The notes: a model not told the origin generated them from the letters alone. DNA of 64,000 bases from Bacilli bacterium (GCA_051872395.1 JBJEDU010000035.1:5740-69739); one strand, 5' to 3'; shown: positions 46,518-64,000, counted from the stretch's first letter. Made by a program: numbers and translations.

Positions 46518-48419
46518 TTATTCAACTTTATCATCGATGAGGTTGAAATCAATTTGAGAAACATCGAGATTATATCCGTATTTATTAACAGCGAAGCAAG
46601 TTGCAGCTTTATCTAAAATAAATGAATAGTAAGTATCTAAAACTTTATCATTTAAATACAAAACTGTTTTCGCTCCAAGAACGGATTCATTGTTGAATTT
46701 AAGTTTTAAATTTTGACCTTTAATGACTTCTTTTTTATTTGTCACTCTCGTCAAATTATCAAATGGAACAGTAATTTGATATTTATGTTTTCCTTCTAAT
46801 AATATCGAATTAGCGATTTTGATATTATTATTCAATAATTTGAACTTAGAAACACCATTTTTAGTATTAACTAAAACATCAAATTTATTTTCTAAAAGTG
46901 GATATTTACAAGTTAACACAGTGTCCATTTCTTTATTCATTAATACTAAATTCTCTTTCTTGACATAAACAGTAATATCATCATCAACATTTAAATCAAG
47001 AAGAGGTAATTTAACACCTAAATAAGTATCACGATCACTTGTTGAAATATAAAGGAGCATCGAATCTTTTGATTTTTCAATGATTTTGATTTTCGCTTTA
47101 ATTTCAATATCATCGTCTTTCTCTTTTGTTAATGAGAAATTCGCTGTATCAATTTTTAAAACCACATCATGGACACCAGTCCAATATGAAGGAAGGACAA
47201 ACGCTCTTTCGTTTTCTGTTAAAGGAATAAGTTTATCCCCAAGCGTAATTACACCATTATCTCCATCATATCTCGCTAATAAATAATTGAAATTAGTCAA
47301 ACCAGAAATACGATTTTGATTATTTGCATCAAATAGATGAATGTGACGAGTGTGGAATTTAACAGTAATGACATCGCCTTCTTTAATTTCTTTTCTTCCA
47401 TCAATTTTACAAACGATAGGAATTTCTGTTTCATTAATTTTTCCATAGACGATAAGTTCAGAACCAAGTTTTTCAATAACATCGACAAAAACTTTAAAAA
47501 CGTCACTTCCAGAAACTTCATCTGTTTGATAAATTTCTTCTGGACGAATACCAATTTTTACATCTTTGCCGATATAATCTAAACTCACTAATTGGTGAAT
47601 TGTGTCTTCATGTAAAACGATTTTACAAGTCGATTCACCACTTGTTATTGTCGCATAATATTTATTCTTTTCTTTCGATAACTTCGCATCAAATAAATTC
47701 ATTTGAGGCGCGCCTAAGAAAGTCGCGACGAAAATATTTGTTGGATGGTCATATAAATTTGTTGGGGTATCAATTTGTTGAATGACACCATCTTTCATAA
47801 CGACAATTTTACTCCCCATTGTCAAGGCTTCGGTTTGGTCATGGGTAACATAAATGAAAGTTGTTTGAAGTCGACGATGAAGTTTAGTAATTTCGCTTCT
47901 CATTTGAACACGTAGTTTTGCGTCTAAGTTACTTAAAGGTTCATCGAGCAAGAATACTTTTGGTTCACGAACAATACTTCTTCCTAACGCAACTCTTTGA
48001 CGTTGACCACCTGAAAGAGCTTTTGGTTTACGAGTCAAATAATCAGTTAAACCTAATATTTCTGCTGCGGCTTTAATACGTCGGTCAATTTCATCATTAT
48101 CAACATGAGCGAGTCTTAAACCAAATGCCATATTTTCATAAACGGTTTTATGTGGATATAAGGCATAATTTTGGAAAACCATTGTAATATCACGGTCTTT
48201 TGGAGGTAATTCGTTCACTAATGTATCTCCAATATAAAGATCACCTGAAGTAATTGCTTCAAGACCTGCAATCATTCTTAAAGTTGTTGATTTACCACAT
48301 CCAGAAGGTCCAACAAAGACAACGAAATCTTTATCATCGATTTTTAAATTCAAATCGTTGACCGCTTTGACACCTCCATCATAAACTTTGTAAATGTGGT
48401 CTAATTTTAAACTCGCCAT
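46518..48419 (-). CDS. MalK/MsmX-type sugar ABC transporter ATP-binding protein with about 260-aa C-terminal extension
   Basis: Walker A GPSGCGKST, signature LSGGQRQR, Walker B FLLDEPLSNLD, TOBE-like domain to about aa 370, then additional unique about 260 aa. Confidence 0.85.
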   Translation of the reverse strand: MASLKLDHIYKVYDGGVKAVNDLNLKIDDKDFVVFVGPSGCGKSTTLRMIAGLEAITSGDLYIGDTLVNELPPKDRDITMVFQNYALYPHKTVYENMAFGLRLAHVDNDEIDRRIKAAAEILGLTDYLTRKPKALSGGQRQRVALGRSIVREPKVFLLDEPLSNLDAKLRVQMRSEITKLHRRLQTTFIYVTHDQTEALTMGSKIVVMKDGVIQQIDTPTNLYDHPTNIFVATFLGAPQMNLFDAKLSKEKNKYYATITSGESTCKIVLHEDTIHQLVSLDYIGKDVKIGIRPEEIYQTDEVSGSDVFKVFVDVIEKLGSELIVYGKINETEIPIVCKIDGRKEIKEGDVITVKFHTRHIHLFDANNQNRISGLTNFNYLLARYDGDNGVITLGDKLIPLTENERAFVLPSYWTGVHDVVLKIDTANFSLTKEKDDDIEIKAKIKIIEKSKDSMLLYISTSDRDTYLGVKLPLLDLNVDDDITVYVKKENLVLMNKEMDTVLTCKYPLLENKFDVLVNTKNGVSKFKLLNNNIKIANSILLEGKHKYQITVPFDNLTRVTNKKEVIKGQNLKLKFNNESVLGAKTVLYLNDKVLDTYYSFILDKAATCFAVNKYGYNLDVSQIDFNLIDDKVE

Positions 48420-48421
48420 AA

Positions 48422-49336
48422 TTATTCTCCTTCCTTGGTGAGTAACCCTTTGTTAACAATTTCTTTCGAATATTTTTTGTTTATGAATTTGTCAAACATC
48501 TTGAAGGCATAAAGACAAAAACATAAACTCATATGTGAAAATCCATAAAGGACAATTAATATCAAACTAATAATTTGGATAAGTGCGATTGGAATAAAAA
48601 TATAAAGAAGAAAAAATAGCGCACTAATCGCAACAAATAATAAATTTAATGGATATAAAACAAACGATAACATCAAATTATTTTTTAATGCTGGAATAAA
48701 TTTAAAATTATATAGTGTCCCCGAGGCGAGGAGATAGAGGGACAGCATGATTGAAAATAGATATACGATAGTTAATAAAATTATTAATATCACTTTAACA
48801 AATGAAGGAATATCAGTCATTAAAGGATAAAAATAAATATTGGAAATATAAAGGAATGAAAAAAGAGAAAATATCGCACCACTTAAAAGGGAAGATTTTA
48901 TATTATCTTTGATTCCAAAAAAGAAATCTTGTCCGACATTGATTTTTGGATCTTGAAACACTAACTTCTTAATGACATAAAATAGTCCACCTAAACCAAT
49001 AAATCCAATAATTAATAAAGGAATTGAAATCAAAGAAGAAATCATATTTAAAGAGAAATTTCTTAAATCGATATCGGCTTGAGTTAATGAAGTGGTATCG
49101 ATTGGCTGCATCATATAAAGTTTCCAAATAAAATTAAAAGCGAAAAACGGAATAAAAAATAACGCGCTAAGAAAAGATAAAGCGATTAATGTTCCAAATC
49201 GATGAGATAAAATATCAAAATACGCATAAAAACGATTCGATGGAAGTTTATCTCCGTTTTTTGATCGATTTTTATTGAAGAAATTATATAATTTCGTTCC
49301 TCTTTTATTTTCTGACATTTTGTTTAAATTTTTCAA
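48422..49336 (-). CDS. Hypothetical membrane protein associated with sugar ABC locus (YesL/DUF624-like?)
   Basis: 304 aa, 6 hydrophobic helices, N-terminal basic cytoplasmic segment. Confidence 0.45.
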   Translation of the reverse strand: MKNLNKMSENKRGTKLYNFFNKNRSKNGDKLPSNRFYAYFDILSHRFGTLIALSFLSALFFIPFFAFNFIWKLYMMQPIDTTSLTQADIDLRNFSLNMISSLISIPLLIIGFIGLGGLFYVIKKLVFQDPKINVGQDFFFGIKDNIKSSLLSGAIFSLFSFLYISNIYFYPLMTDIPSFVKVILIILLTIVYLFSIMLSLYLLASGTLYNFKFIPALKNNLMLSFVLYPLNLLFVAISALFFLLYIFIPIALIQIISLILIVLYGFSHMSLCFCLYAFKMFDKFINKKYSKEIVNKGLLTKEGE

Positions 49337-50237
49337 TTTCAGTCATTGTTGGACAAGAATCAATCGCACCCTTTTTTAAAGTAGTCAACCCTCCAACAAT
49401 GTTCGCTGTGGTAAATATTTCTTTAAGTTCTTCTTTTGATAAAAGAGAATAATCTTTCTTATCAAATGAAGATAACAAATATGAATAGAAAGCATCACCT
49501 GCCCCCGTAGTGTCAACTGGTTTAACTTTATAAGTATCAATATGTTCAAGTTTATCTTGATAAAAATAGTAACTACCATTTCCACCATCAGATAGACAAG
49601 TGAAGATATTTTTATTAACTAAAGAAGATAGTCCTTTAATAATATCTTTTTCTCCAGTTAATATTTCTAATTCATCAGTGGTGATTTTTAATATATCGAC
49701 ACTAGGAATGATGGATAAATAATATTTTTTACTTTCTTCTAAAGAAGAAAAAATATCGCTTCGATAATTGATATCAAAAGAAATTTTACATTTAGTGTTA
49801 TTTTTTAAATAATCAATCATCTTAATAAGTAATTCTCTACCTTCTTTAAAAGAAAGCATAAGAGAACCAAGATGAACAATATTAATATTTGAAAAATCAA
49901 ATTTTTTAAATGTTTCAAAATCTAATCGGTAATCCGCTCCATTATCGCGGTCAAATTTAAAATCTCTTTCCCCATCGGTTAAAGTGACGATTGCTTTCGA
50001 GGTATTATATGAATCAAGCTGTAAAATTTCTAATTTCTTAAAATTTTTCGTTTTTGCGAAATCACATAATAATTTCCCGTATCGATCTTTTCCAATCGCA
50101 CCAAAAAAGCAAACATCATTACCAAATAAAGTCAAGTTAGAGGCAACATTAAAAGGCGCTCCACCTGGGAAAACTGTTTCATTTTTATTTTCATCGACGA
50201 ATATATCCACTAATATTTCGCCAACACATAAAATCAT
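49305..50237 (-). CDS. PfkB-family fructokinase
   Basis: Ribokinase/pfkB signatures (GGAPFNVA, DTTGAGDAF); in fructan locus next to LacI regulator. Confidence 0.85.
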   Translation of the reverse strand: MILCVGEILVDIFVDENKNETVFPGGAPFNVASNLTLFGNDVCFFGAIGKDRYGKLLCDFAKTKNFKKLEILQLDSYNTSKAIVTLTDGERDFKFDRDNGADYRLDFETFKKFDFSNINIVHLGSLMLSFKEGRELLIKMIDYLKNNTKCKISFDINYRSDIFSSLEESKKYYLSIIPSVDILKITTDELEILTGEKDIIKGLSSLVNKNIFTCLSDGGNGSYYFYQDKLEHIDTYKVKPVDTTGAGDAFYSYLLSSFDKKDYSLLSKEELKEIFTTANIVGGLTTLKKGAIDSCPTMTEIEKFKQNVRK

Positions 50238-50239
50238 AT

Positions 50240-51187
50240 TTAGGCCGTTTCTCCGATTACAAATTCTGTTTTTATTTTATAAAGACTATCGACTTTTTCT
50301 TTCTTTATTCTTCTAAGCAAGACATCGACAGTAACTTTTGCCATCTCTTCGATATTTTGTCTCACTGATGTAAAAGTTGGAACTTGAATCCACTTATTCA
50401 TACATCCATCATAGGTAATAATATCGATTTTTTTATTAATATCATTGCAAATTCGATAAAACGCAAATCCAAAAGCGTCACTTGTCGCAAATAAGGCATC
50501 AACGTCAGGATACTTTTCATTGAATTGCAATGATCTTAATATTTCTTCACCATGTCTAAAATCTTCGTAATAGACATAAGATTCAAGATTGTATGCTTTA
50601 ATAAAATCTAAGTAAGCATCATATCTTTTTGATACTTCACTTTCGACTTTTGGACATCCACCTATAAACCCGATTTTGCGGTGTCCTTTTTGATATAAAT
50701 ATTTCAATGCTTTATAAGTTGCATCATAGTTGTCTGAAGTTATGCAAGGAACATTTTTTCCAAAGTGACGATCAATAGTCACTACTGGAAGCGATGAGTC
50801 GAAATGTCTATATTTATTATGAGTAATGAATATAATTCCATCGACTTGATTATGAGAGAGTAAATCAATAAATTCTTTTTCTCTTTCAACATCATTCGCG
50901 CTTCCAGTAATTAGAAGTTTATATCCATTGGCATGAGCTTCATTTTCTATCGCTTGAATCATCAACGCGAAGAAAGGATGACTAACAACAGGAACACATA
51001 AGGCGATCGTCTTAGTTGAATTATCTTTAAACATCTTCCCAATTGAATTTGTTTTGTAATTCAATTCATTGATAGCTTTTTCAATTTTTATGCGAACCTC
51101 TTTAGAGACATAGCCGTTATTAAAATAACGTGAGACAGTTGATTTTGATACTCCTGCAGATTTTGCTACATCCAAGATGCTAGACAT
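50240..51187 (-). CDS. LacI-family transcriptional regulator
   Basis: N-terminal HTH (ILDVAKSAGVSKSTVSRYFNN), periplasmic-binding-like sugar sensor domain; 315 aa. Confidence 0.85.
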   Translation of the reverse strand: MSSILDVAKSAGVSKSTVSRYFNNGYVSKEVRIKIEKAINELNYKTNSIGKMFKDNSTKTIALCVPVVSHPFFALMIQAIENEAHANGYKLLITGSANDVEREKEFIDLLSHNQVDGIIFITHNKYRHFDSSLPVVTIDRHFGKNVPCITSDNYDATYKALKYLYQKGHRKIGFIGGCPKVESEVSKRYDAYLDFIKAYNLESYVYYEDFRHGEEILRSLQFNEKYPDVDALFATSDAFGFAFYRICNDINKKIDIITYDGCMNKWIQVPTFTSVRQNIEEMAKVTVDVLLRRIKKEKVDSLYKIKTEFVIGETA

Positions 51188-51292: not shown

Positions 51293-53182
51293 CTATCTAT
51301 GAGAATACTTTTTCTTTTTGACAATTAATATAATTAATGCGCTGATAACTACAATTGAAATAATTGAAACAAATCCGACAAGTGTGTTGCCATTACTAAT
51401 GAAGTTTACATAAACGGAACCTAAAGTAGAAACAACAGCGGCACTATTCATATAGTTAATTGTTTCAACTACACCACATTTAGTAACTACGACATCATTA
51501 AGGTAATAAGTTTCACCTGGATCTACAATATTATTGTAATTATAATCATCGCTATTATTAATGATGGTTTTCGCAGTTACATCACTTATCGCATTATATT
51601 TACTAACTATATCGTTTCTTGTTTCAGTAGATAATTGACACAATGTATCACTACCATAATTACGCACTGTCGCATAGAATTCATCTAAGAAATTGAATGC
51701 TTTGAGTACAGAATCATTTTCTTCTTCAATATTTGAAACACCACGAACATATTTTGGATAAACAACGCCTTTGAATGTTTGATCTGGAGTCGCATCACAG
51801 GTTTGTTTAATAATATTGTCATCGAGTTCAACTTTAATGTCATTAACATTTAAATTGAATCTAATTTCATCAATATAGGATAAACCCCATCCATCACCGG
51901 TATTATTTTCACCGATTTCTAAATAAACGGTTTTTCCAACTAAACCAGAAATATCAACAAATACTTCGGTCATAGTATTAATCATACTTTTGCTGCTAAC
52001 AATATTGGCTACACCATTATCAACGAAGTAACGCATATTATTTCCAGTAGGAGTAAATTCAAATAAAACATCTTCAGTAGTAGAGTCAATTAAACGAACA
52101 TTAGCTTTCGCTGCTCCAATACGGAATGCCATATAATTATCTGTAATATTGATAGTAAATTTTGATCTTAATAATACTTTTACAGTTTCAGCAATTCCAG
52201 TCCAAGTTGGGTGAGTAGAGAAAAATTTATTACCGTGTTTATTAAATGGCATATGTTCTGCCCATTCATAACAATCTCTGGAAGAAATCATAGCGTTCCA
52301 CATATCATTTGTTAATTCAAGTGTCGATGAATCTTCATTGATAGAAAGATTAGTGAAATAATCCGCTAAAGCGATACCTTCAAAATCTAAAACCTCATAA
52401 CTTTGCCAATCATTTGATCTAAATGATGCAAATTCTTCAGTTTCATTGATTTTGCTCATCATATAGGCGTATTGACCAGCGTCTTTGTCGCCATCTGTTT
52501 GAGTGAGATAAGCATTTTTACGATAAGCCCTAATATCATTAGTAACATCCTCTGCAGTTTGATTGAATTTCAAACCACCGAAGTTGACAATACCAAATCC
52601 GCCAGTATTATTATCGACAACACGAACTGAAATATAATGATCGACATAATCCGCTAAATCAGCGACACGAATGTATAAAGCTTCACCAGTTTTTGGATCA
52701 TGAAATAAGCCAACATTCGTGAATTTTTTGATAGCAACACTACTGGTATTATCAGTGCCATTATCAATAATTTCGACATAGAGATTTTCTTCATTCGCTC
52801 CACCGCCTAAATAGAAAGTAAGATATCTTTCTGTTTGTTTGACTGGAGTTTTTAATTGAAGCTTTGATGTATTAGCGTCTCCACTTGCGGTTATTGTTTC
52901 ACCATCAGTGTCATAATTAACATCATCTACGCTTCGGTAAAAATCGATACCCTCTGGTACAAAGAATGAACGCACTGACCACCATCTACTAGTGCTGTTT
53001 GATGTAGGAAAACAACCAGTTGTTCCATCGACATATTCAAATGTATCACTACTGAATGCCACAGAAGTAACTGGGGATTCATCTTCTGCTTTTGCAACAT
53101 GACTATTATTTGCTTTCAAACCACTTGCAAATAATAATGACGCCATGAAAACAGGGACGAATAATAATTTCTTATTTTTCAT
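51293..53182 (-). CDS. Cell-surface protein with signal peptide, two degenerate CBM_4_9-like modules and C-terminal TM anchor
   Basis: Signal MKNKKLLFVPVFMASLLFASG; module endings LYIRVADLADYVDHYISVRVVDNNTGGFGIVNFGGLKF and VYLEIGENNTGDGWGLSYIDEIRF; C-terminal hydrophobic anchor plus KKKK. Confidence 0.6.
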   Translation of the reverse strand: MKNKKLLFVPVFMASLLFASGLKANNSHVAKAEDESPVTSVAFSSDTFEYVDGTTGCFPTSNSTSRWWSVRSFFVPEGIDFYRSVDDVNYDTDGETITASGDANTSKLQLKTPVKQTERYLTFYLGGGANEENLYVEIIDNGTDNTSSVAIKKFTNVGLFHDPKTGEALYIRVADLADYVDHYISVRVVDNNTGGFGIVNFGGLKFNQTAEDVTNDIRAYRKNAYLTQTDGDKDAGQYAYMMSKINETEEFASFRSNDWQSYEVLDFEGIALADYFTNLSINEDSSTLELTNDMWNAMISSRDCYEWAEHMPFNKHGNKFFSTHPTWTGIAETVKVLLRSKFTINITDNYMAFRIGAAKANVRLIDSTTEDVLFEFTPTGNNMRYFVDNGVANIVSSKSMINTMTEVFVDISGLVGKTVYLEIGENNTGDGWGLSYIDEIRFNLNVNDIKVELDDNIIKQTCDATPDQTFKGVVYPKYVRGVSNIEEENDSVLKAFNFLDEFYATVRNYGSDTLCQLSTETRNDIVSKYNAISDVTAKTIINNSDDYNYNNIVDPGETYYLNDVVVTKCGVVETINYMNSAAVVSTLGSVYVNFISNGNTLVGFVSIISIVVISALIILIVKKKKYSHR

Positions 53183-53203: not shown

Positions 53204-55426
53204 TTAAAGTGTATTTATAGCGTTAGCCCAAGGAATATCTGTCACTACTGGCGGGTTACCAGTAACTTCAACTTGGGATACGGTATCAAATTTTGTTGAG
53301 ACATCAATTTCAGTCTCATAATAAGTGACGATTTCATCAAAGAAGACAACTTGCCATCCTCCATCGATAACTTCATCCACTAATTCGATATATAAGTTTT
53401 CTCCAATATAATCACTTAAATCAGCAACATAAGTTACCATTGTTGCTAAGCGACAACCATTAGAAACAGATGGGAAATTAACATCCGCGAAATTATAATT
53501 TTCATATTTTGCAATCATTTCGCCATTTTCTCTTCTAACAATTACTCTCGTGGAACGACCACCTAATTTAAATGAGATTTGTCCACTACCACCTAAGGTG
53601 AAATTAGTGGATTTAAATGAGAAGCCATTTGATTCTTCTACTCCGGCATCCCATCCATTGAAGAAGTATGTTCCAGTTTTGTTATAAGGAATTTCTTCAC
53701 TCCAGAAGGTATCAAGCGAACAAATGGCCGCATTGAGATTTGGACTACCACTTGTAATGGTCCAGCCAGTGGCATCTCCAGTTTCAAATCCACCATTAAC
53801 GATGTTATTATCGTAAGTCATCTTAGTAACAACTTCGATTTTGATTGTACCTACTGAAACATTGTTATAAGCATCAGTCGCGCTGAAAGTATATAAATAT
53901 GTTCCGTTTTGACTTAAATCACAAGCATAGTAATTGACATCTTCTAAAGTTGTTCCGTTTCTACTTAATGAAACTGAACGAATGACGAGATCATTTCTAA
54001 CAGTGTAATCATCTTTAATAGTTGTATTTTTGATGAGTTCCACTAAATTGTATGAACTACTAGCAGAAATCATTGTTTGATAAGCGTAATCGTTTTCATC
54101 GACTGAAATGACAGGAGCGTCTCCACCTACTGGGAATGAAATAACATTGTTATAAGCATCAATATAGGCGTTTTTCGCTACGCTATCATCGTTATATAAA
54201 CTACCATCCACTAAAGAAGCTCTTTCATTAATGATGGTTTCTTGACTCAAATTAATTCTGAATTCGTCAGCGTTAATTGCTGCAAAGCCTCCACTAGTCG
54301 CATTATCGTTAATAGTGAAATATAATGTTTGACCAATATAATTTGATAAATCGACATAATATCTCACTAATGAAAGTGATAATTCTGGGTCTTTAAAGGC
54401 AATGTTTTTAATTTTAATTAACTCTTCGCCTGTTAAACCGTTGTTAACAGCGATATATCCACTCGCGTCTTTAATACCACCTAATAAAACCGAAGCGTAT
54501 GAGGTGTTATTGCCTTGATCGGTGACGAGGAATTTTTCACTTCTTATCGTGCCGGTTAAATTTTCAGCATTTTTATATCCATTAAGGAAATAATTTCCAC
54601 TTGCGTTATGTTTTCTATCGGTCCAGAAATTTTCACTACTTAAACTAACTGAACCTTGAGTAAAGGCATTACCTTTAAGTATTTTCCAATAAGATAAATC
54701 GCCAGTTTCAAACCCACCATTTCTTAATTCTGTCACTGGAGGGTCATTATCGATGACTTCATCATGATATTCAATTAATTGTTCTTCTCTTTGAGTTCTT
54801 GCATCATTTAATTCTTGAGCGTTTTTCAAAATGCGAACATCATCGAGATTGACAAATGAATAATCGATATAATCACTATTTCTATCATTATCAGTAACTT
54901 TGATATAAATGACTTTTTCAAAATAATCACTCAAATCAACAACTTGTCTAATAAGTTGAGATTTAATGGTCGAATCATTGAAATCATCATTTGTTAATTT
55001 TGTGACTGTTTCTTGTTTTTGATTGACAATAAATGAAAGTGGTTCCGTTTTGCCGTATTCAAAAAATTCAATATAGCAATTTTCTTTATTTTTCATCGCT
55101 CCAATTTTTAAGGTAATTTGACCGATACCTTCTAAAACGAATGGATCTGAGATTAAACTACCAGTAAATGATGGAAGAGAAGAATAACCACCTACATAAC
55201 AATATGACCCTTCTTTATTTGTTGGAAGTCCGTCATTAAAAGTATCGATGTTCACAATATCTTCTTCTGTGAATGCACCTTCACCACTGACAGTCCAGCC
55301 TGTAATTCCATCTTCAAAGCTTCCGTTAGTGACACTATCAGGGAAAGAAGTAGTATCAGTGGTATCTTTTTGACAGCCAGTTAATAAAAGAGGGAGAATC
55401 AATAAGGGGAGAATCTTTTTGTTCAT
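53204..55426 (-). CDS. Surface lipoprotein with three tandem CBM_4_9-like beta-sandwich modules (putative fructan-binding protein)
   Basis: Lipobox LLLTGC; three repeats starting NGSFEDGITGW / NGGFETGDLSYW / NGGFETGDATGW and ending (V/Y)VDLS(D/N)YIG..LY(F/I); 740 aa. Confidence 0.65.
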   Translation of the reverse strand: MNKKILPLLILPLLLTGCQKDTTDTTSFPDSVTNGSFEDGITGWTVSGEGAFTEEDIVNIDTFNDGLPTNKEGSYCYVGGYSSLPSFTGSLISDPFVLEGIGQITLKIGAMKNKENCYIEFFEYGKTEPLSFIVNQKQETVTKLTNDDFNDSTIKSQLIRQVVDLSDYFEKVIYIKVTDNDRNSDYIDYSFVNLDDVRILKNAQELNDARTQREEQLIEYHDEVIDNDPPVTELRNGGFETGDLSYWKILKGNAFTQGSVSLSSENFWTDRKHNASGNYFLNGYKNAENLTGTIRSEKFLVTDQGNNTSYASVLLGGIKDASGYIAVNNGLTGEELIKIKNIAFKDPELSLSLVRYYVDLSNYIGQTLYFTINDNATSGGFAAINADEFRINLSQETIINERASLVDGSLYNDDSVAKNAYIDAYNNVISFPVGGDAPVISVDENDYAYQTMISASSSYNLVELIKNTTIKDDYTVRNDLVIRSVSLSRNGTTLEDVNYYACDLSQNGTYLYTFSATDAYNNVSVGTIKIEVVTKMTYDNNIVNGGFETGDATGWTITSGSPNLNAAICSLDTFWSEEIPYNKTGTYFFNGWDAGVEESNGFSFKSTNFTLGGSGQISFKLGGRSTRVIVRRENGEMIAKYENYNFADVNFPSVSNGCRLATMVTYVADLSDYIGENLYIELVDEVIDGGWQVVFFDEIVTYYETEIDVSTKFDTVSQVEVTGNPPVVTDIPWANAINTL

Positions 55427-56826
55427 TATTTTTTGACTCCTAAACCATGTTTAATTAAATTGTTGATTATCACTTCACTATTATTATTAATAGGGGTGAT
55501 TTTAAATTTTGTTCCAATTTTTTTGAAATAAGTTGATGAAAAAGAATATTTTCCATCGTTTATAAGAATATCGATACAAGAATTATCGATAATCATATCT
55601 AGTTTGAGATGAGTGAGATTGTCATCAATATCAATGATGCGATTTTTCGCATCAGTTAAATCTTTATTGACTATTTCTATATCCATGTTGTTTCTTGACA
55701 CAGTGATGTTGTTATTTATAACACTGACAGTGATATCAAAATCATCTTCAACACTGATTTTATAATCACCATTTGAAACAATTTCTATTTCAATACGACA
55801 ATTTCTCGAAGATAAATTATCATCGCTAAATTCACTATTGATATGGACATTATTTAAACAGTATTCATCAGTGTAATAATTCTTAATCGAAGGAATGAAT
55901 GATTGATACATCAAGTTATCAATGATTTTAATTTCACGAATAAAGGTAAATTGTCCAACATAACCTTCTTCTTGACTTGGATAGTTTCTATCCCACATAT
56001 TTTCCCACGCGACAAGATAAGATTTTCCATCTCTTTGTAGTGTTTGCGTTGCATAGAAATCAAATCCATAATCAACTTCTTTGACATCGCTTAAATGTGA
56101 CAAGACACCACTTTCTAAATCGATGATTCCAGTTTGATAAACTGTCGAATGGACATTTTGAAATTTGTTTTTAATTTTTTCTTTAAATTGCATGCAATAA
56201 ATCAAACAAATTTCATTTTTCTCTTTGTTAGTAAAAATGACATCTGGGCATTCAATCATTCCATTATTGATATCTTCTAATCTCATCACTTCATTAATAA
56301 AACCATAGTTTCTAAAATCTAAAGTTTTATATAAAAGTAAAGAGACTCCTTTATCTTTTCTTCTTGCCCCAATAAAGACATAGAAGACATCATCTTTTTC
56401 AATAATTTTTGGATCACGAAAATCCGCGACAATAAAATCATCTGGAAGATTATATTTAGAAATGACTGGATTAAAATGTGATTTAACAAAATGATTTCCA
56501 TCGACAGAAGTCGCTAAGCATTGAACTTGTTCATTTTCATTCGCTCCAGTATAAAGAAGATAAAGAGTTTTACCATGAACCATCGCACTTCCTGAAAAAC
56601 AACCATAAAATTTTTCATATTCTTCAGTTGGAAATAAAATAATTCCTTCTTCATTGAAAGTCACTAAATCTTCACTGGTGAAATGTAACCAGTGCATCGT
56701 GTCCCATTTGACACTATTGGGATTGTGTTGAGCGAAAAGATGATATTTTCCGTTGTAATAAATAAAACCATTTGGATCGTTAATCCAACCTTTTTTTGCT
56801 GTAATATGTAATTTTGGACGATACAT
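55426..56826 (-). CDS. Intracellular GH32 beta-fructofuranosidase (sucrose-6-P hydrolase/invertase-like)
   Basis: GH32 blocks WINDPNG, FRDPK, ECPD; no signal peptide; 466 aa. Confidence 0.9.
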   Translation of the reverse strand: MYRPKLHITAKKGWINDPNGFIYYNGKYHLFAQHNPNSVKWDTMHWLHFTSEDLVTFNEEGIILFPTEEYEKFYGCFSGSAMVHGKTLYLLYTGANENEQVQCLATSVDGNHFVKSHFNPVISKYNLPDDFIVADFRDPKIIEKDDVFYVFIGARRKDKGVSLLLYKTLDFRNYGFINEVMRLEDINNGMIECPDVIFTNKEKNEICLIYCMQFKEKIKNKFQNVHSTVYQTGIIDLESGVLSHLSDVKEVDYGFDFYATQTLQRDGKSYLVAWENMWDRNYPSQEEGYVGQFTFIREIKIIDNLMYQSFIPSIKNYYTDEYCLNNVHINSEFSDDNLSSRNCRIEIEIVSNGDYKISVEDDFDITVSVINNNITVSRNNMDIEIVNKDLTDAKNRIIDIDDNLTHLKLDMIIDNSCIDILINDGKYSFSSTYFKKIGTKFKITPINNNSEVIINNLIKHGLGVKK

Positions 56827-56835
56827 AAATAATTT

Positions 56836-58872
56836 TTATAAAACCTCAATTGTATTTTTAATTAAGTTTGTAATTTTTGATTTTCCTGTCGAATAAACTG
56901 AATAATTTAATTCATTATTTGTGGGGTACACTAATCCACTCATGGTGTAATAACCATCATTAATGAATACTTCTACGCTTGAAACATCGACATAAATTTC
57001 AAGAGTGATTTTGTTATCGATTGGAGTGATAGATGCATATCTAACATCTAATTCTCCATCATCGTCTGCAGTGGAAATTTTTCTACCACTATTTCGACGA
57101 TCGAATACAACTTTTTGAATTGTAGAATCGTAATAGATATTAGTTTCTTCATCTTCACCTTTTAATAATTTGAAGCCAACTGTTCCATTTAATTCACTAA
57201 CATCAATTTCTGCTTTAAATGTCAATGTATTACCAGAAAAATCTAAGCCAACTTCATTATTATCTAGCGATATTTCATCGACAACTTGTTCATTGACGAA
57301 ATAATTTTTTATCGCTGATATTGGTTTTTGATAAAGATGATTATCTTTGAGTTCTAAGGTTCGAGGAAGAGTAACTTCACCAGTCCAACCATCGACGCTG
57401 GAAGGATAACTTCTCGACCACATATTCATCCACGCAAGCATAATGGCTTCATCATCATGATTAAGTGTTTGTGTCGCATAGAAATCGAATCCTTTATCAA
57501 ATTCTTCCATGTAATCCGTGCCATTATCGTTCGTGAATGTTCCATTTGTATAATCAATGTGTCCGATTTGATAAGTCACTGAATGCATATTTTGATAAAT
57601 TGAGATATCTTCATTTCTCACAGATTGAGGAGAACTTAAGATAATGTCTTTTCCACCAACTTCAACATAATTTGGACACTCAAACATTCCAGTATTGGTA
57701 ATTGTTGAATCGACGAGCGTGCCAAGATATTTCCAAGATAAGAAATCATTTGATTCATAAAGTAATATCTTGCCTCCTGGACCTTCATTTTTTCCACCCA
57801 CTAAAGCGTAATATTTACCATCTTTTTCATAGACGTATGGATCTCTAAAATCAGTAATTCTTGAACCTTGTCTCATCGATGAATCAATGACAGGGTTTTT
57901 ACTTCTTTTTGTGAAATTAACGCCATCAAAAGAGGTGGCAATTGCTTGTTGTTGAACACCATTTGGTCCGACCGCAGTATACATGACATAAAGTTTGTCA
58001 TCAATGGTTAAGGCTCCACCCGAGAAAACTCCTAAAGAGTCATATGATTTATCAGGAGCGAAAGCGACAGGTAAATATTCCCATTTAACTAAGTCTCTAC
58101 TTCGTGCATGTCCCCAGTGCATCGTGTCCCAATTTGGACTATAAGGATTATGTTGATAAAACAAATGATAATAACCATCGTAATAACATAAGCCGTTTGG
58201 ATCGTTCATCCATCCGATATCAGGCATGAGGTGATATGTATGTCGATATGTATCACCAACATCACCAGCGTGACTCGAAACATAATTTCTTGCATCTTCT
58301 AGTAATGTTCCAATATCTTCACTACCTTCATAATCGAGAAGTACATCATCAAGAAGGATATGATTGAATCCATCCGTGCCATTGTCGTTATCGACGATTT
58401 TTAAATATAATTCTTTGTTGAGATATTTATTTAAATTTACTTTTAATCGATAAAGTCTATCGTTTGGTGCTTCTTCGTTAAAAAATTTATTAGTGATTCG
58501 ATATACTTCTTCGTTCGTGGAAGCATCGATAACACTGACATATACTTTATCTTTATAGCGACCTCCACCAATAAGAAGAGATAAGACCCCATTCTTTTTT
58601 AATTTGAATGGACTACTTGTCAAAGTTCCAGTCGCCGAATCTCCAGCTTGATATCCATCTAAGAAGAAGTTACCAACCACATGACGCTTTGTTATAGCAG
58701 AATCATCAGCGATTTGAACTGAATTTAATGAATAAGCATTGCCAGTGGCTTTCCAACCAAGAAGTGAACCATCTTCAAATCCACCATTGAGTAATTCATT
58801 TTTAGCATTTGAAGAGGAAGAACAACTTGTTAATAACAAAAGTGGAATTATAAGTGATATTTTTTTATTCAT
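56836..58872 (-). CDS. Surface lipoprotein GH32 exo-fructanase (levanase/inulinase-type) with N-terminal CBM_4_9-like module
   Basis: Lipobox LLLLTSC; N-terminal NGGFEDGSLLGW module; WMNDPNG, FRDPYV, MFECPNY; C-terminal beta-sandwich. Confidence 0.9.
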   Translation of the reverse strand: MNKKISLIIPLLLLTSCSSSSNAKNELLNGGFEDGSLLGWKATGNAYSLNSVQIADDSAITKRHVVGNFFLDGYQAGDSATGTLTSSPFKLKKNGVLSLLIGGGRYKDKVYVSVIDASTNEEVYRITNKFFNEEAPNDRLYRLKVNLNKYLNKELYLKIVDNDNGTDGFNHILLDDVLLDYEGSEDIGTLLEDARNYVSSHAGDVGDTYRHTYHLMPDIGWMNDPNGLCYYDGYYHLFYQHNPYSPNWDTMHWGHARSRDLVKWEYLPVAFAPDKSYDSLGVFSGGALTIDDKLYVMYTAVGPNGVQQQAIATSFDGVNFTKRSKNPVIDSSMRQGSRITDFRDPYVYEKDGKYYALVGGKNEGPGGKILLYESNDFLSWKYLGTLVDSTITNTGMFECPNYVEVGGKDIILSSPQSVRNEDISIYQNMHSVTYQIGHIDYTNGTFTNDNGTDYMEEFDKGFDFYATQTLNHDDEAIMLAWMNMWSRSYPSSVDGWTGEVTLPRTLELKDNHLYQKPISAIKNYFVNEQVVDEISLDNNEVGLDFSGNTLTFKAEIDVSELNGTVGFKLLKGEDEETNIYYDSTIQKVVFDRRNSGRKISTADDDGELDVRYASITPIDNKITLEIYVDVSSVEVFINDGYYTMSGLVYPTNNELNYSVYSTGKSKITNLIKNTIEVL

Positions 58873-61231
58873 AAATTGAATTCATCCTTGTAATTTTTAT
58901 GTAATTAATACTGACGTTTCCTTCTTCAAGAAGAGAGATTCCATTCGCATATAAATCGCTTGGATAACTTCTCGCTGAAATTGTTTTTTGAGAATTGAAA
59001 TTAACTTCTATTTGACTTCTATCAACATATAAAACGAGTTGAACTTTGTTTTCACTAGTTTTATAAGTGAATGGAGAATAATAATAATCTCCACTGGTAT
59101 ATGAAGAATTTACTTGATTGAGTGAAGTATTAACTCCTCCAGTTGAGGTAGAACCATCAAAATAAACAATGGTTCTTTCTTCACTGATAGAAGATTCTCT
59201 TATATTGAGTTTTAAAGTTGAATTATTAGGAACAAATTCCATCTCTAATTTATACATATCGTCATCAAAATCTTTTAATGATTCGTTAAAAGAAGAAATG
59301 GATGGATTATTTGCTTCATAAATGATTTCACCTTCAATTCCTTCGGTATTGATGAAATCAATGCCTAAATCATTAGTGGAAGTATCATAAAATACTTTTC
59401 TAACGAGTCCAACATTATGCGACCACCCAGATTCCGAAAGAAGTGAGGAAGGGCGTTTTGATTGCATGATTGAAAAAATCATTGCATCATTACTAATCGG
59501 ATCAATGAATCCACTTGGACCAGTAAAAACATTTTGACCTAAGTCCATACGTCGAGGGTTGGAGAATGAAGGAATAAAACGACAATTAACTTTGTCAAAT
59601 TCGCCAATCCAATAGATAACATTGTTGTCTGCTGTGGTCGCAGGTGCTGGTGAAATTATAAAAACGTACTTATTGGTAGTATTTCCGTTTTCATCTTTTA
59701 AAGGTAATAAAACTGGAAGTTCCCATACATTGCCCATCTCTAACGATGCGACATTGTATTCAAATAGGTGACCACGATATTCCCAGTTATGAAAATAATC
59801 GACTTTATTGACATTCGTGGTATAAATAAGTGCAGTACCACATGAATTATTTTCATTACCACTTCCAATGACAAGGTAATAATTATCTCCATCTTTTAAG
59901 ATGGTCATATCTCTAAATTCATTGCTTCGACCTTGTCCTTGAAGTTGTGCGATAGCGAGTCGATCACTTACTTCCCATTCTGTTAAGTATGGATCAGATA
60001 AATCTTTTGGATAAGCAATACCAACATTTTGATTGCTCACTAATCCTGGATGAGCGTAGTTACCGGCAGTAAAAAATAAATAAGGAACTCCATCTTTATC
60101 GTAAGTTGATCCACCACTCCAGACACCATCAGGGCACACGGTACCATTTTTAAAGACGACAACTTCTTTTCTTGGTGTCCAATCAACCATATCAGTACTA
60201 GTTAAATGTCCCCAAACAATTCCTTGAGCGTCATTAAAATATGGTCCGTTAGGATTGCATTGATAAAATAAATGGTAGACCCCATTGTAATATATTGGAG
60301 CGTGTGGTTCATTCATCCAATGTTCATATGGACCACCATGATATTGTGGTTTATATAAATCATCAGTTAATGAATTTTGTAGCCATACATCGTTAAAATC
60401 ACATGTTTTGATATTGTGATTTTCATCTAGACATGATTCGTAATAACTTCTAATCGTTGAATACGATAAGGCTTTTTTATACATGCGTAACTCATCTAAT
60501 AAACCAGAAATCATTCCTTTGGAACAATCTCCACTTGAAGAAGTAACGCTATTTTTTCCTATTAATAATGGAATATCGTCCGCGCGAAGGATATAACTAT
60601 CTTTTTCAATTTCGACACGATTGATAATTTTTCCATTTCTAAATAATTGAAGTTCACCATTGACCCCATCAAATTTAGCGAGGACATGGTTCCATTCATA
60701 TTGGTCGAGTGGACTATTGACATCAGTAATTTCTACCCAGCCATTATTAGTGCCAACACCAAAATATATTTGGCCTTCTCTTTTATAGCCTAAGGTAAAG
60801 CCCATAGAAAAGGTATCATCTCGATAATATTGTGAAGCGACAGCTTGAATTATCGTGTCGCTTGTATTATTGATATCACTCCAGTTATAACTTCTTGGAG
60901 CAATCCAACAAGAAATAGTGAATTCTTTTCCAGAAACAGAAAATTTTTCACTATCGATTTCTCCATAAATTGAATATCCATCAAAGACCATCGCATCTTT
61001 AACTACACCATCTTTAAAAGGAACTTCTTGTCTTTCTAAAGTTGAAGAGTTATGAAGATGATAATTCATTTCCACACTATTAATTTTCTTTGTTGAATCA
61101 ACTAAAAGAGAAGAATCGTTTTTATCAAAAGCAAAATACGCAATCATCGATGAATTATAATTATCATTTGATGAAGAACAACCAGTTAACAATAATAATG
61201 AAGATAAAGCAATAATCGATATTTTTTTCAT
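58865..61231 (-). CDS. Surface lipoprotein GH32 with N-terminal LamG/concanavalin-like domain and WMNEP active-site block (putative endo-fructanase)
   Basis: Lipobox LLLLTGC; LamG-like region aa about 35-265; GH32 blocks WMNEPHA (Glu at nucleophile position, codon RC of 60308-60310), EFRDM, NVWELP. Confidence 0.85.
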   Translation of the reverse strand: MKKISIIALSSLLLLTGCSSSNDNYNSSMIAYFAFDKNDSSLLVDSTKKINSVEMNYHLHNSSTLERQEVPFKDGVVKDAMVFDGYSIYGEIDSEKFSVSGKEFTISCWIAPRSYNWSDINNTSDTIIQAVASQYYRDDTFSMGFTLGYKREGQIYFGVGTNNGWVEITDVNSPLDQYEWNHVLAKFDGVNGELQLFRNGKIINRVEIEKDSYILRADDIPLLIGKNSVTSSSGDCSKGMISGLLDELRMYKKALSYSTIRSYYESCLDENHNIKTCDFNDVWLQNSLTDDLYKPQYHGGPYEHWMNEPHAPIYYNGVYHLFYQCNPNGPYFNDAQGIVWGHLTSTDMVDWTPRKEVVVFKNGTVCPDGVWSGGSTYDKDGVPYLFFTAGNYAHPGLVSNQNVGIAYPKDLSDPYLTEWEVSDRLAIAQLQGQGRSNEFRDMTILKDGDNYYLVIGSGNENNSCGTALIYTTNVNKVDYFHNWEYRGHLFEYNVASLEMGNVWELPVLLPLKDENGNTTNKYVFIISPAPATTADNNVIYWIGEFDKVNCRFIPSFSNPRRMDLGQNVFTGPSGFIDPISNDAMIFSIMQSKRPSSLLSESGWSHNVGLVRKVFYDTSTNDLGIDFINTEGIEGEIIYEANNPSISSFNESLKDFDDDMYKLEMEFVPNNSTLKLNIRESSISEERTIVYFDGSTSTGGVNTSLNQVNSSYTSGDYYYSPFTYKTSENKVQLVLYVDRSQIEVNFNSQKTISARSYPSDLYANGISLLEEGNVSINYIKITRMNSIYE

Positions 61232-61233
61232 AA

Positions 61234-62145
61234 TTATTTTAATCCTGTAAAGGAAACTCCTTCGACGATATATTTTTGACAGAAAATATAGACGATCGCG
61301 ATTGGAATCGTCGATATAGTTAATGAGGCCATGACCATACCAATATCTCTTTGCGCTGCACTATTGACGACTTGAAGAAATACTTGTAAAGGTTGTTGGT
61401 CAGTCGTTGGGAACATCAATTGAGCGAAAATGTATTCGTTCCATTGTCCCATAAATGTAAAGATAGCCACTGTCGCAAAAATTGGTTTTGATAATGGAAC
61501 TATCATTTTGAAAAATACCCCAATACGAGAGCAACCATCAATTCTTGCCGCTTCTTCAATTTCCACTGGCATTCCTAAAAAATATTGACGGAACATATAG
61601 GTGTAAAACAAAGACGCAACGCTAGGTAATAAATAACCAATGACATTTAAAGGTTTGGCTAATAAACCTAAATAGTAAAGAACTAAATATGTTGGAACGA
61701 TACTCGTTTCAATTGGAATAATCATTAAAACCAAAATGATTGTTGTCATCAATTTATTTCCTGGAAATCTAATTTTCGCTAAAGCATAACCAGATAAAGA
61801 ATTAATGACGAGAACTGAAACAATCATCACACTACAATAGAGAATAGAATTGAGAATGGATTGACCAAAATTTTCCATCGAATTGAATAATTTGATATAA
61901 GAAACAAACCATTCAGTAATATTCCAACTAGGTGGGAAAAATGTCCATATTGTCGATAATTGACGATTGACAGTGTCATTGTCTTTGAATGAGTTTGAAA
62001 GCATCCAAATGACAGGGAATAAAAATATAAACGCCAGTAAAGCGCAGCAAATAGCCACAATCGCAGTCTTTAAAATCTTGCTAATTTTGATATTCTTTTT
62101 AACTTTTGAAATGTTTTCAACGTGAGATAAATATTCCATTTTCAT
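61234..62145 (-). CDS. Sugar ABC transporter permease (MalG/UgpE-like)
   Basis: 6 TM, EAA-type loop (EAARIDGCSRIGVFFKMIVPLSKP). Confidence 0.9.
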   Translation of the reverse strand: MKMEYLSHVENISKVKKNIKISKILKTAIVAICCALLAFIFLFPVIWMLSNSFKDNDTVNRQLSTIWTFFPPSWNITEWFVSYIKLFNSMENFGQSILNSILYCSVMIVSVLVINSLSGYALAKIRFPGNKLMTTIILVLMIIPIETSIVPTYLVLYYLGLLAKPLNVIGYLLPSVASLFYTYMFRQYFLGMPVEIEEAARIDGCSRIGVFFKMIVPLSKPIFATVAIFTFMGQWNEYIFAQLMFPTTDQQPLQVFLQVVNSAAQRDIGMVMASLTISTIPIAIVYIFCQKYIVEGVSFTGLK

Positions 62146-62149
62146 AAGA

Positions 62150-63085
62150 TTATGCCTCGTTATCTCCGCCTAAAGCTTTTCTTAATGTTAAGGAAACTGT
62201 GGCTAAAATGATGGTATAGAATAAGGCAATCGCGGATGAATATCCGACATCCTTATATGTAATACCTTGTTTGTAAATGTAATATGACATTGTAAGCGTA
62301 GAATCTAATGGTCCACCACCAGTCATAATCATTGGTTGAACACAAATTCTAAAAGCTCCAATTAGCATCGTAATGAAGACAAAAACCATCGTTGGTTTTA
62401 ATCCTGGAAGGGTGACATTAATAAATTTTTGCCATGCGTTAGCCCTATCGATATCAGCGGCTTCATAAACATCACGTGGAATATTTTTAAGACCACTTAA
62501 TAAAATTAACATTTGATATCCAGCGCCTTGCCAAGCAGAAATAAATATAATACTTCCCATCGCTAAATTTGGATCATCAAGGAAGGCGACCGGATTAGCA
62601 CCCATTGCCAGTAATAATGTATTAATTAAACCATTTTGAGTATTTAATAAATTCATCCATAGCATTGATGTGACCGCTAAAGATAACATAACAGGGACGA
62701 AAAACGCCCAACGGAGAAATGTATTAAATCTTTTAATTTTATTTAATAAAAGTGCTAAACCTAAAGCAGTACCGAATTGTAAAGGCATAACACCTAAAAC
62801 AAATATCGCGGTATTTCTTAAGGCAACAAGAATTTTTGTATCATGCACTAATCGGACAAAATTTTCAAATCCGACAAATTTCATTTGAGTTAATCGACCC
62901 ATATTCGCATCAGTAAACGCCATCGTTAAAGAGAAAGCAATTGGAATGAAAACGAATATGATAGATAAAATCATACAAGGCGCAATAAAGGCTAAACCCG
63001 TTAACGATTCGTTAACGGTGTATTCTTTTTTGCCGATTTTAAAGTGATTTTTCTTTCGCTTAAAAGCGATATTTTCAACAGTCAT
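62150..63085 (-). CDS. Sugar ABC transporter permease (MalF/UgpA-like)
   Basis: 6 TM, EAA loop (EAADIDRANAWQKFINVTLPGLKP). Confidence 0.9.
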   Translation of the reverse strand: MTVENIAFKRKKNHFKIGKKEYTVNESLTGLAFIAPCMILSIIFVFIPIAFSLTMAFTDANMGRLTQMKFVGFENFVRLVHDTKILVALRNTAIFVLGVMPLQFGTALGLALLLNKIKRFNTFLRWAFFVPVMLSLAVTSMLWMNLLNTQNGLINTLLLAMGANPVAFLDDPNLAMGSIIFISAWQGAGYQMLILLSGLKNIPRDVYEAADIDRANAWQKFINVTLPGLKPTMVFVFITMLIGAFRICVQPMIMTGGGPLDSTLTMSYYIYKQGITYKDVGYSSAIALFYTIILATVSLTLRKALGGDNEA

Positions 63086-63086
63086 A

Positions 63087-64000
63087 TTAGCCTCTTGAAG
63101 CGTCGACTACACTCATCAATTCTTGAATTTTATTTTTTAAGTTATAGTTAGAAACAATGTTCATATTCTTGATGTATTCAAGAACACTACCATACGCATC
63201 TTTTAATTGAGGATATTTGACCATTTTAGGTCTAGTAAATGTATTAGCTTGTAAATAGATTGATAATGAATGAGCAGGACCAGTTGATAATTCATCCATT
63301 GTGGAAAGAAGTGTTTTGTTTGTTGGGAATGTACCAATCGCGTCATACATCATTCTCGATGCACTTTCGCCAGTGAGGTATTTAACCGCAATCGCTGCGG
63401 CTTCAAGATTTTTACTATCTTTGGTAATACCAAATCCATAACTACCACATGGAGAAGCAAAAATATTGCTCTTATTTCCATTTTCGTCTTCATAAACTGG
63501 ATAAGGCATAATATCGTATTGATCTTTTAACGAAGAAGTACCTTTGGAAATCTTTCTAGCATCCCATGGACCATGAATTTGGAAAGGAATTTGTTCTAAA
63601 ACGAAAGCACTATCACTAGTTCCAGAATAGACCCAAGATTCATTATTAGAAAGTCCAGTTTTGGAATAAAACATTTCTAGTTGAGCAATTCCACTGACAG
63701 CGTTATCTGTCGTCAATGCTTCAGTGACATGGTCGTCAGTGCCAAAGGTTGCTCCTGCCGAATACACTAATGGAGAATATAAATACATATATCCATCAGT
63801 GCCAAAACCAGTATTTAAGGCAATTTGATATGGTTGATTTGCCGCTTTTAATCTAATTTGGGCATCATGAACATCTTTGAATGACCAAGGATTTTCAAGC
63901 GTACCAAAATCCGCGTCAGTGTAACCAACTTTATATAACATTGCTTTGTTATAATATAATCCACCTGGGGCTTCCATCCCACTAAGTGAATATAATTTTC
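63087..64000 (-). CDS. Extracellular solute-binding protein of sugar ABC transporter (C-terminal part; 5' end beyond window)
   Basis: Open frame continues to window edge; family-1 SBP-like sequence; position upstream of permeases. Confidence 0.8.
   Translation of the reverse strand, partial: KLYSLSGMEAPGGLYYNKAMLYKVGYTDADFGTLENPWSFKDVHDAQIRLKAANQPYQIALNTGFGTDGYMYLYSPLVYSAGATFGTDDHVTEALTTDNAVSGIAQLEMFYSKTGLSNNESWVYSGTSDSAFVLEQIPFQIHGPWDARKISKGTSSLKDQYDIMPYPVYEDENGNKSNIFASPCGSYGFGITKDSKNLEAAAIAVKYLTGESASRMMYDAIGTFPTNKTLLSTMDELSTGPAHSLSIYLQANTFTRPKMVKYPQLKDAYGSVLEYIKNMNIVSNYNLKNKIQELMSVVDASRG

Follow-up and report, generated by a model that had tools for sequence, protein, structure and literature searches.

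A candidate endo-inulinase-like surface GH32 with a Glu nucleophile and a LamG-like N-domain, encoded in an operon of a Bacilli bacterium

A Glu-type GH32 lipoprotein and its closest described counterparts

Within glycoside hydrolase family 32 (GH32), both characterised enzyme types reported to employ a glutamate as nucleophile are endo-inulinases, namely INU2 of Aspergillus ficuum/niger (PDB 3RWK and 3SC7), in which Glu43 is located in the motif YWMNEPNG (PMC5245892), and EnIA of Arthrobacter sp. S37 (EC 3.2.1.7), encoded by 2439 bp and hence comprising 813 amino acids (aa) (PMC5984348). According to a review, mutagenesis of EnIA showed Glu323 and Glu519 to act as nucleophile and acid/base, respectively, and Asp460 to be essential (PMC5984348), with inulotriose to inulopentaose being formed as products (PMC5984348; PMC6563369). 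In contrast, the nucleophile is an Asp in BT1760, an endo-levanase from Bacteroides thetaiotaomicron (PMC5245892; PMC6560043), and also in LevB1 of Bacillus licheniformis. Here, a GH32 protein with Glu at this position is described, encoded in a stretch of 64,000 nucleotides (nt) from a Bacilli bacterium (GCA_051872395.1 JBJEDU010000035.1:5740-69739; in the following, the window), which bears a LamG-like N-domain and is predicted to be a surface lipoprotein. With modest confidence, we regard it as a surface enzyme acting like an endo-inulinase, which would introduce internal beta-2,1 cuts into inulin-type fructan.

The gene extends from position 58865 to 61231 on the minus strand, as do all features described below, and represents an uninterrupted open reading frame (ORF) for 788 aa, a product identical to MGM9874254.1 from a Bacilli bacterium metagenome-assembled genome (MAG). 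The G+C content of the window is 30%. The GH32 gene assigned to this place by the initial annotation is corroborated by Pfam matches to both domains of the family, i.e., Glyco_hydro_32N (PF00251) at residues 298-620 (E-value 2.2e-50, 172 bits at a cut-off of 22.1) and Glyco_hydro_32C (PF08244) at residues 646-780 (E-value 4.4e-13, 50 bits at a cut-off of 21.9). The former corresponds to the catalytic domain, a beta-propeller with five blades (59372..60340), in line with PDB sequence matches and Foldseek, the latter to the C-terminal beta-sandwich (58892..59296). Every defining feature of GH32 that was tested is present, and the protein belongs to this family; its scores are far below the NCBIfam cut-offs of the canonical GH32 families (for example, 111 bits against scrB_fam at a cut-off of 356).

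The N-domain of about 230 aa previously described as LamG-like is recovered as a Laminin_G_3 match (PF13385) at residues 89-260 with an E-value of 1.9e-18, while the strands of a beta-sandwich span approximately residues 29 to 251 in an AlphaFold2 model, and weak matches to LamG-type modules are obtained in the PDB; altogether, the domain can be placed at about residues 25-270 (60422..61159). The model, built from 18 homologues as input, is confident (pLDDT, the predicted local distance difference test, 86; pTM, the predicted template modelling score, 0.85) and shows the N-terminal beta-sandwich, the propeller and the C-terminal sandwich, its high pTM being consistent with three domains packed in a fixed arrangement. 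Many GH32 structures are matched by it at a Foldseek probability of 1.00, and none of the PDB sequence or Foldseek matches represents a solved structure from the LamG-GH32 clade described below. A known fructan-binding module was considered for the LamG domain and rejected, as only generic LamG modules match in the PDB sequence search. With a lipobox (L-T-G-C) at its end, the N-terminal sequence MKKISIIALSSLLLLTGC represents a lipoprotein signal peptide of residues 1-18 (61178..61231). Although the LPAM_1 score of 20.1 bits is borderline at a cut-off of 20, the lipidation residue Cys18 is invariant across 18 aligned homologues, upholding the earlier assignment as a surface lipoprotein.

Block A is encoded on the reverse strand by cat tgg atg aat gaa cca cac gct, giving H-W-M-N-E-P-H-A, in which the GAA codon at 60308..60310 specifies Glu308, the predicted nucleophile in WMNEPHA (residues 305-311). 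The predicted transition-state stabiliser is Asp441 (GAT, 59909..59911) in FRDM, equivalent to the RDP block, and the predicted acid/base is Glu504 (GAA, 59720..59722) in WELP, followed by Leu505 where canonical GH32 enzymes have Cys. These blocks, read from the sequence by the initial annotation in the same way, align in HMMER with those of the Arabidopsis cell-wall invertase (2AC1, 2QQU) as WMNEPHA on WMNDPNG, FRDM on FRDP and WELP on WECP, while BLASTP against INU2 (3RWK) puts Glu308 opposite Glu43 and Glu504 opposite Glu233. The triad Glu308/Asp441/Glu504 thus corresponds to Asp/Asp/Glu of 2AC1 and to Glu43/Asp/Glu233 of 3RWK, and since both alignments agree on the blocks, a misassignment of block A is ruled out. 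Canonical exo-acting GH32 enzymes, comprising sucrose-6-phosphate hydrolases, beta-fructofuranosidases, exo-inulinases and plant invertases, have the same two-domain fold and matching -1 subsite residues, all of which are kept in the window protein (W305, N307, Q324, W340, W371-S372, R440-D441 and E504), and the retaining mechanism should be common to both. However, the canonical enzymes differ in the Asp nucleophile, in the ECP motif, in a GW-x-N-x-W motif of blade 5, which is replaced here by F-S-I-M-Q-S-K-R (residues 586-593, 59453..59476; MAFFT, column counts and BLASTP), and in lacking the LamG domain.

The clade of LamG-fused Glu-type GH32 proteins

WMNEPH[A/S/V] and W-E-[L/M]-P are shared by all of the 120 best homologues, which are 40-85% identical to the window protein, comprise about 790 aa and contain its three Pfam domains. 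When 295 collected sequences were aligned on the family hidden Markov model (HMM) for column counts, Glu was found in 276 of the 283 sequences having a residue in the nucleophile column, so that neither chance nor a sequencing error can account for Glu308. The RD-block Asp is kept in 285/286 and the acid/base Glu in 281/283 relatives. At position 505, 218 sequences have Leu, 50 Met, 5 Val and only 8 Cys, while at position 588 Ile or Val occurs 258 times and Trp twice, and Gln is found 216 times at position 590, resulting in a blade-5 loop pattern of [S/T/G]-[I/V]-M-Q. Defined by Laminin_G_3 directly preceding a GH32 propeller with W-x-N-E-P, E-[L/M]-P and [I/V]-M-Q, the clade includes the window protein.

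A few relatives deviate from this pattern. In P0217, P0218 and P0235, the nucleophile is replaced by Asp, with block A reading WMSDLCG, WSSDASG or WVSDTNG, and in P0237 (WTGRPMA/WVAP) and P0264 (WVGQPFA/WVAS) both nucleophile and acid/base are lost, suggesting that the latter two may be non-catalytic. By extension, the window protein could be imagined as a catalytically dead, lectin-like GH32 binding fructan only, which is, however, highly improbable given that Glu308, Asp441, Glu504 and the -1 subsite residues are kept here and near-invariant in the clade.

A profile search among 1.84 billion cluster representatives resulted in 1172 clusters at 50% identity (E-value of 1e-30 or below), a number obtained with a full-length profile and therefore possibly including other GH32 proteins; nearly all of the best 150 of these clusters are full-length LamG plus GH32 matches. 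Variants of block A among the profile matches include WMNEPHA, WTNEPHG and WANEPHG. Scanning one genome per species, at least 571 relatives were confirmed. Most relatives among the matches listed stem from animal-gut Bacillota MAGs, including Candidatus Alloenteromonas, Lachnospiraceae, Oscillospiraceae, Faecalibacterium and Christensenellaceae, and further hosts are found in Paenibacillus, Streptomyces rochei, Microbacterium, Oxalobacteraceae, Vibrio and Bacteroidia. The member encoded by S. rochei genomes has 977 aa (P0296-P0299, which also include proteins from relatives of this species). Beyond Bacteria, the LamG-GH32 architecture reaches Archaea, as haloarchaeal megaplasmids of Haloterrigena turkmenica (NC_013744.1) and Natrinema sp. 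(NZ_CP082248.1) encode relatives with 32-33% identity over 96-97% of the length. The names encountered for clade members in cluster look-ups and in homologue searches, which started from the window protein, a profile of high-GC members and P0210 with its block A WMNEPSG, are generic throughout (for example, 'GH32 C-terminal domain-containing protein', 'LamG-like jellyroll' or 'sucrose-6-phosphate hydrolase SacC') and none of them points to EnIA, a cycloinulo-oligosaccharide fructanotransferase (CFTase) or another characterised enzyme.

Paenibacillus is not only rich in clade members but also known for CFTases, GH32 enzymes described as having a region homologous to bacterial endo-inulinases. 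The window protein might accordingly be mainly a transfructosylase forming cyclic or anhydro fructo-oligosaccharides, and one relative, P0194 (about 1325 aa), corresponds in size and layout to what would be expected for a CFTase. Nevertheless, this activity appears improbable for the 788-aa protein, which does not possess the CBM38 and the terminal repeats reported for CFTase and is encoded in an operon whose import-and-hydrolyse logic most simply suits linear oligosaccharides.

In the metagenomic proteins P0151, P0154, P0177 and P0413, an Asp-type GH32 (WMNDPNG), a LamG domain and a Glu-type GH32 (WMNEPHA) are combined in a single polypeptide, with P0177 additionally holding ricin-type lectin domains. 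The LamG domain is always found directly before the Glu-type propeller of these fusions and never before the Asp-type one. Such an arrangement fits a division of labour.

Likeness to endo-inulinases and mode of action

For a comparison of active sites, the window protein was aligned in MAFFT with INU2, three distant clade members, an Aspergillus exo-inulinase, a plant invertase and the two Asp-type GH32 proteins encoded next to it. The INU2 sequence, obtained via the PDB search, confirms Glu43 in block A, so that the fungal endo-inulinase motif WMNEPNG with a Glu nucleophile, given in the initial annotation, is verified. Besides Glu43 and Glu308, the two proteins resemble each other directly after the acid/base, where INU2 has EVP and the window protein ELP in place of the ECP of Asp-type GH32 enzymes; this Val234 of INU2 has been singled out in a review as endo-specific (PMC13416181). 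A third, approximate resemblance concerns loop 4, AVMNSYGSNP in INU2, which is cited as being critical to endo activity. In the alignment, SIMQSKRPSS of the window protein takes the place of this loop and of GWMNNWQYGA of the exo-enzyme, and only its first four residues resemble INU2. Both sequences start with small-aliphatic-Met-amide (AVMN and SIMQ, respectively) and both Trp residues of the exo-type GW-x-N-x-W are gone, the second of which, Trp335 in the Aspergillus exo-inulinase, is said to narrow the pocket. Of the four INU2 hallmarks compared, two are thus found in the window protein, a third is approximated and one is absent. Outside these positions the likeness is limited, with an overall identity of 23%, no LamG domain in INU2 and a different loop 1 (PTANVWGNI in INU2 versus PNGPYFNDAQGIV in the window protein). 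The Glu nucleophile, E-[L/M/V]-P and the Trp-less blade-5 loop are common to INU2 and the clade. Within 80 related loci, all of the 87 Glu-type propellers have an IMQ-type loop, whereas 53 of the 71 Asp-type propellers show GW-x-N-x-W.

With respect to EnIA, the two proteins are laid out much alike. Its Glu323, Asp460 and Glu519 correspond to Glu308, Asp441 and Glu504 of the window protein, the span from nucleophile to acid/base amounts to 196 residues in both, and the total lengths are similar (813 versus 788 aa). Moreover, the nucleophile is preceded by about 300 residues in both proteins, while it lies inside the first 20-60 residues in ordinary GH32 enzymes. Block A of EnIA, printed in the review as WMN(D)EPNGL, differs from WMNEPHAP, and EnIA is secreted by a soil actinobacterium, whereas the window protein is lipid-anchored and belongs to a gut bacterium of low G+C content.

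Several observations weigh against an endo-inulinase-like action. The unmatched INU2 hallmark is Thr100 (FTGT), at the position of which the window protein has Ser372 (W371-S372-G-G). Plant exo-enzymes, too, are devoid of the second Trp of the blade-5 motif, and a Trp-less loop is therefore not diagnostic by itself. The best PDB matches of the window protein are exo-acting plant invertases and fructan exohydrolases, while INU2 holds only rank 19 when the AlphaFold2 model is searched in Foldseek. Furthermore, the three traits shared with INU2 might go together for structural reasons instead of being linked to endo action, and the probable assignment of the window protein to the EnIA type is based on published residue positions and length. 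No characterised clade member was found, nor was an enzyme assay for any member. Finally, P0253, treated below, counts against the inferred preference for beta-2,1 bonds.

The ranks also speak on descent. In the PDB sequence search, INU2 (3RWK) is only the 14th match with 67.9 bits, compared to 115 bits for plant invertase, whereas its own best relatives are fungal exo-inulinases (278 bits), and INU2 reaches 174 bits on an HMM of the Asp-type propellers but 101 bits on that of the Glu-type ones. Considering both ranks and these scores, a specific relationship to the fungal endo-inulinase clade (INU2, InuA, InuB) was rejected. As INU2 fits the Asp-type HMM better, the three shared traits have arisen twice, and the argument for endo action consequently rests on convergence and not on homology. 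Judged in silico, this convergence is the strongest indication that the traits belong together functionally, although endo cleavage is not thereby proven.

The initial annotation had proposed an endo-fructanase in general. Since the characterised endo-levanases BT1760 and LevB1 employ Asp, however, the Glu nucleophile argues for an endo-inulinase-like enzyme in particular. Like the window protein as interpreted here, both are surface or secreted endo-acting GH32 enzymes which, as parts of a fructan-utilisation locus, supply an importer of oligosaccharides, yet neither has a LamG N-domain, and BT1760 combines its block A GFVGDPMP with an intact ECP. In the PDB sequence search, LevB1 (9H8I) reaches no more than 34.9 bits, limited to residues 293-379, and BT1760 does not appear at all, so that, together with the Glu nucleophile, membership in this endo-levanase type was rejected. 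A separate question is the linkage cleaved. In P0253 (MCB2153816.1), with the block A variant WTNEPHG, two DUF4960 modules are located N-terminal to the LamG plus GH32 unit, and DUF4960 was reported to bind levan about tenfold better than inulin (PMC10076258). Linkage specificity may hence vary within the clade, all the more as some loci have two paralogues. An endo-levanase or an endo-hydrolase of the mixed-linkage fructans of grasses and cereals (beta-2,6 or branched), operating under the same operon logic, would be in line with P0253, with the divergent specificities suggested by loci holding two Glu-type copies, and with the hosts being animal-gut bacteria which meet grass and cereal fructans. 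Still, such a specificity is unlikely for the window protein, considering the Asp nucleophile and different block A of the described endo-levanases, the low LevB1 score and that the Glu-nucleophile GH32 enzymes found in the literature are without exception endo-inulinases.

Concerning the mode of action, the complete conservation of the -1 subsite and the exo-acting nature of the nearest solved structures would also be compatible with a beta-fructofuranosidase or an enzyme that splits off fructose, inulobiose or inulotriose at chain ends by means of a Glu nucleophile. S. rochei strain E87 reportedly forms inulotriose as main product from inulin (PMC5984348), and this species possesses a clade member (P0296), a combination which agrees with either mode. 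However, exo action is quite unlikely, as the operon already encodes two canonical Asp-type GH32 enzymes, one of them on the surface, which would make a third exo-enzyme redundant. In addition, the Asp-type/Glu-type fusions suggest complementary rather than duplicate activities, and the convergence with INU2 in three traits would be left unexplained.

The endo mode suggested by the initial annotation is accordingly retained in qualified form. It gains from the INU2-like traits, the surface site and the importer, but not from kinship to the fungal enzymes, and is weakened by the Asp of endo-levanases and the missing Thr100. While a Glu nucleophile in GH32 is already known, new aspects are how large the LamG-fused clade is, that it occurs in gut Bacillota and that no characterised representative of it was found, as well as the three-residue signature acquired by convergence and a co-conserved lipoprotein with modules resembling carbohydrate-binding modules (CBMs). 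Tentatively, the whole clade may constitute an uncharacterised surface endo-fructanase of Gram-positive gut fructan loci, partnered by a new family of three-module fructan-binding lipoproteins.

No prebiotics are used more widely than inulin-type fructans, which are also common in animal feed. To our knowledge, little work has been devoted to the extracellular opening of long inulin chains by Gram-positive gut bacteria. If the endo-inulinase-like reading is true, the changes from Asp to Glu and from ECP to E-[L/M/V]-P together with the loss of Trp from GW-x-N-x-W would provide a rule by which endo-inulinase action could be predicted from GH32 sequences, and would point to primary inulin degraders in uncultured Bacillota. 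Should the clade consist of endo-inulinases, its gene could mark primary fructan degraders in metagenomes and be a source of neutral-pH bacterial enzymes for the production of inulo-oligosaccharides, and the convergence with the fungal enzymes would reveal residues setting endo versus exo action in GH32.

Operon organisation and accessory surface proteins

The Glu-type gene is part of a tightly packed operon on the minus strand. In the direction of transcription, genes for an extracellular solute-binding protein of an ATP-binding cassette (ABC) transporter (63087..64000, running past the window end; Pfam SBP_bac_1) and for two ABC sugar-transporter permeases (61234..63085, with the single genes at 61234-62145 and 62150-63085; Pfam BPD_transp_1) are followed by the Glu-type GH32 and an Asp-type surface GH32 (56836..58872), the latter two genes overlapping by 8 nt. 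According to the ORF list, Pfam and BLASTP, the Asp-type protein is a lipoprotein with an N-terminal CBM-like module and canonical WMNDPNG, FRDP and ECP motifs. Next is a cytoplasmic GH32 without signal peptide (55426..56826; WINDPNG, FRDP and ECP; ORF list, Pfam and NCBIfam), likely an intracellular oligosaccharide or sucrose hydrolase. Canonical motifs had been noted before for the neighbouring GH32, and this holds for both downstream genes. The series continues with genes for a 740-aa lipoprotein (53204..55426), a 629-aa anchored protein (51293..53182), a LacI-family regulator (50240..51187; Pfam), a PfkB-family sugar kinase that is likely a fructokinase (49305..50237; Pfam) and a 304-aa ORF, and, further downstream, for an MsmK/MalK-type ABC ATPase of 633 aa (46518..48419; Pfam ABC_tran, OB_MalK and TOBE_2), the probable energiser of the ABC transporter. 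A promoter scan remained at background level, and neither this nor a terminator scan clearly delimited the operon.

This gene neighbourhood is conserved. In the sample of 80 related loci (L001-L080), ABC permeases are encoded beside the Glu-type gene in 61 (61 and 58 for the two permeases), an Asp-type GH32 in 59, a homologue of the 740-aa lipoprotein in 56, LacI in 53 and the fructokinase in 43. Two Glu-type LamG-GH32 genes each are present in loci L010, L011, L014, L015, L016, L053 and L077, which suggests paralogues of different specificities.

From these components, a pathway can be proposed in which the window protein would act as a lipid-anchored, retaining GH32 fructanase at the cell surface, with Glu308 as nucleophile, Glu504 as acid/base and Asp441 stabilising the transition state. 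Outside the cell, internal beta-2,1 bonds of inulin-type fructan would be cut to give fructo-oligosaccharides, while the Asp-type surface GH32 might trim the polymer and the three-module lipoprotein might hold it. The oligosaccharides would then be imported by the co-transcribed ABC transporter, consisting of binding protein, two permeases and MsmK-like ATPase, and be hydrolysed to fructose by the cytoplasmic GH32, followed by phosphorylation through the putative fructokinase, all under control of the LacI regulator. Its site at the surface, together with the conserved ABC importer and the cytoplasmic GH32, is in keeping with an endo-acting enzyme in the front line, a role taken by BT1760 in the Bacteroides levan locus, the division of labour of which would be mirrored here.

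The putative polymer-holding function refers to a module of about 170 aa, starting with N-G-G-F-E-x-G-x-x-x-G-W, of which six copies are encoded in the operon (BLASTP E-values from 1e-6 to 1e-21). Three of them form the 740-aa lipoprotein, a candidate surface fructan-binding protein (ORF list, BLASTP, synteny, AlphaFold2/Foldseek), one is found in the Asp-type surface GH32 (residues 21-205), and two degenerate copies belong to the 629-aa protein, which is secreted and has a C-terminal membrane anchor (ORF list and BLASTP). The module scores below threshold with all Pfam and NCBIfam models, BLAST does not reveal a relationship to the LamG domain of the Glu-type GH32, and a profile from 16 homologues of the 740-aa lipoprotein did not retrieve any relative of solved structure. 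An AlphaFold2 model based on the alignment of the six paralogues from the window is of low confidence (pLDDT 60) and resembles beta-sandwich CBMs such as CBM61, a porphyran-binding CBM, CBM16 and CBM4. The module may thus be an undescribed fructan-binding one. Homologues of the 740-aa lipoprotein, for example L001:13841-16051 and L012:12687-14921, have a lipoprotein signal in all cases inspected.

Two further features of the operon concern its distal part. Pfam coverage of the MsmK/MalK-type ATPase ends at residue 363, leaving about 270 C-terminal residues without a match. Likewise without Pfam match, the 304-aa ORF (48422-49336) has a TTG start and overlaps by 32 nt with the end of the putative fructokinase gene.

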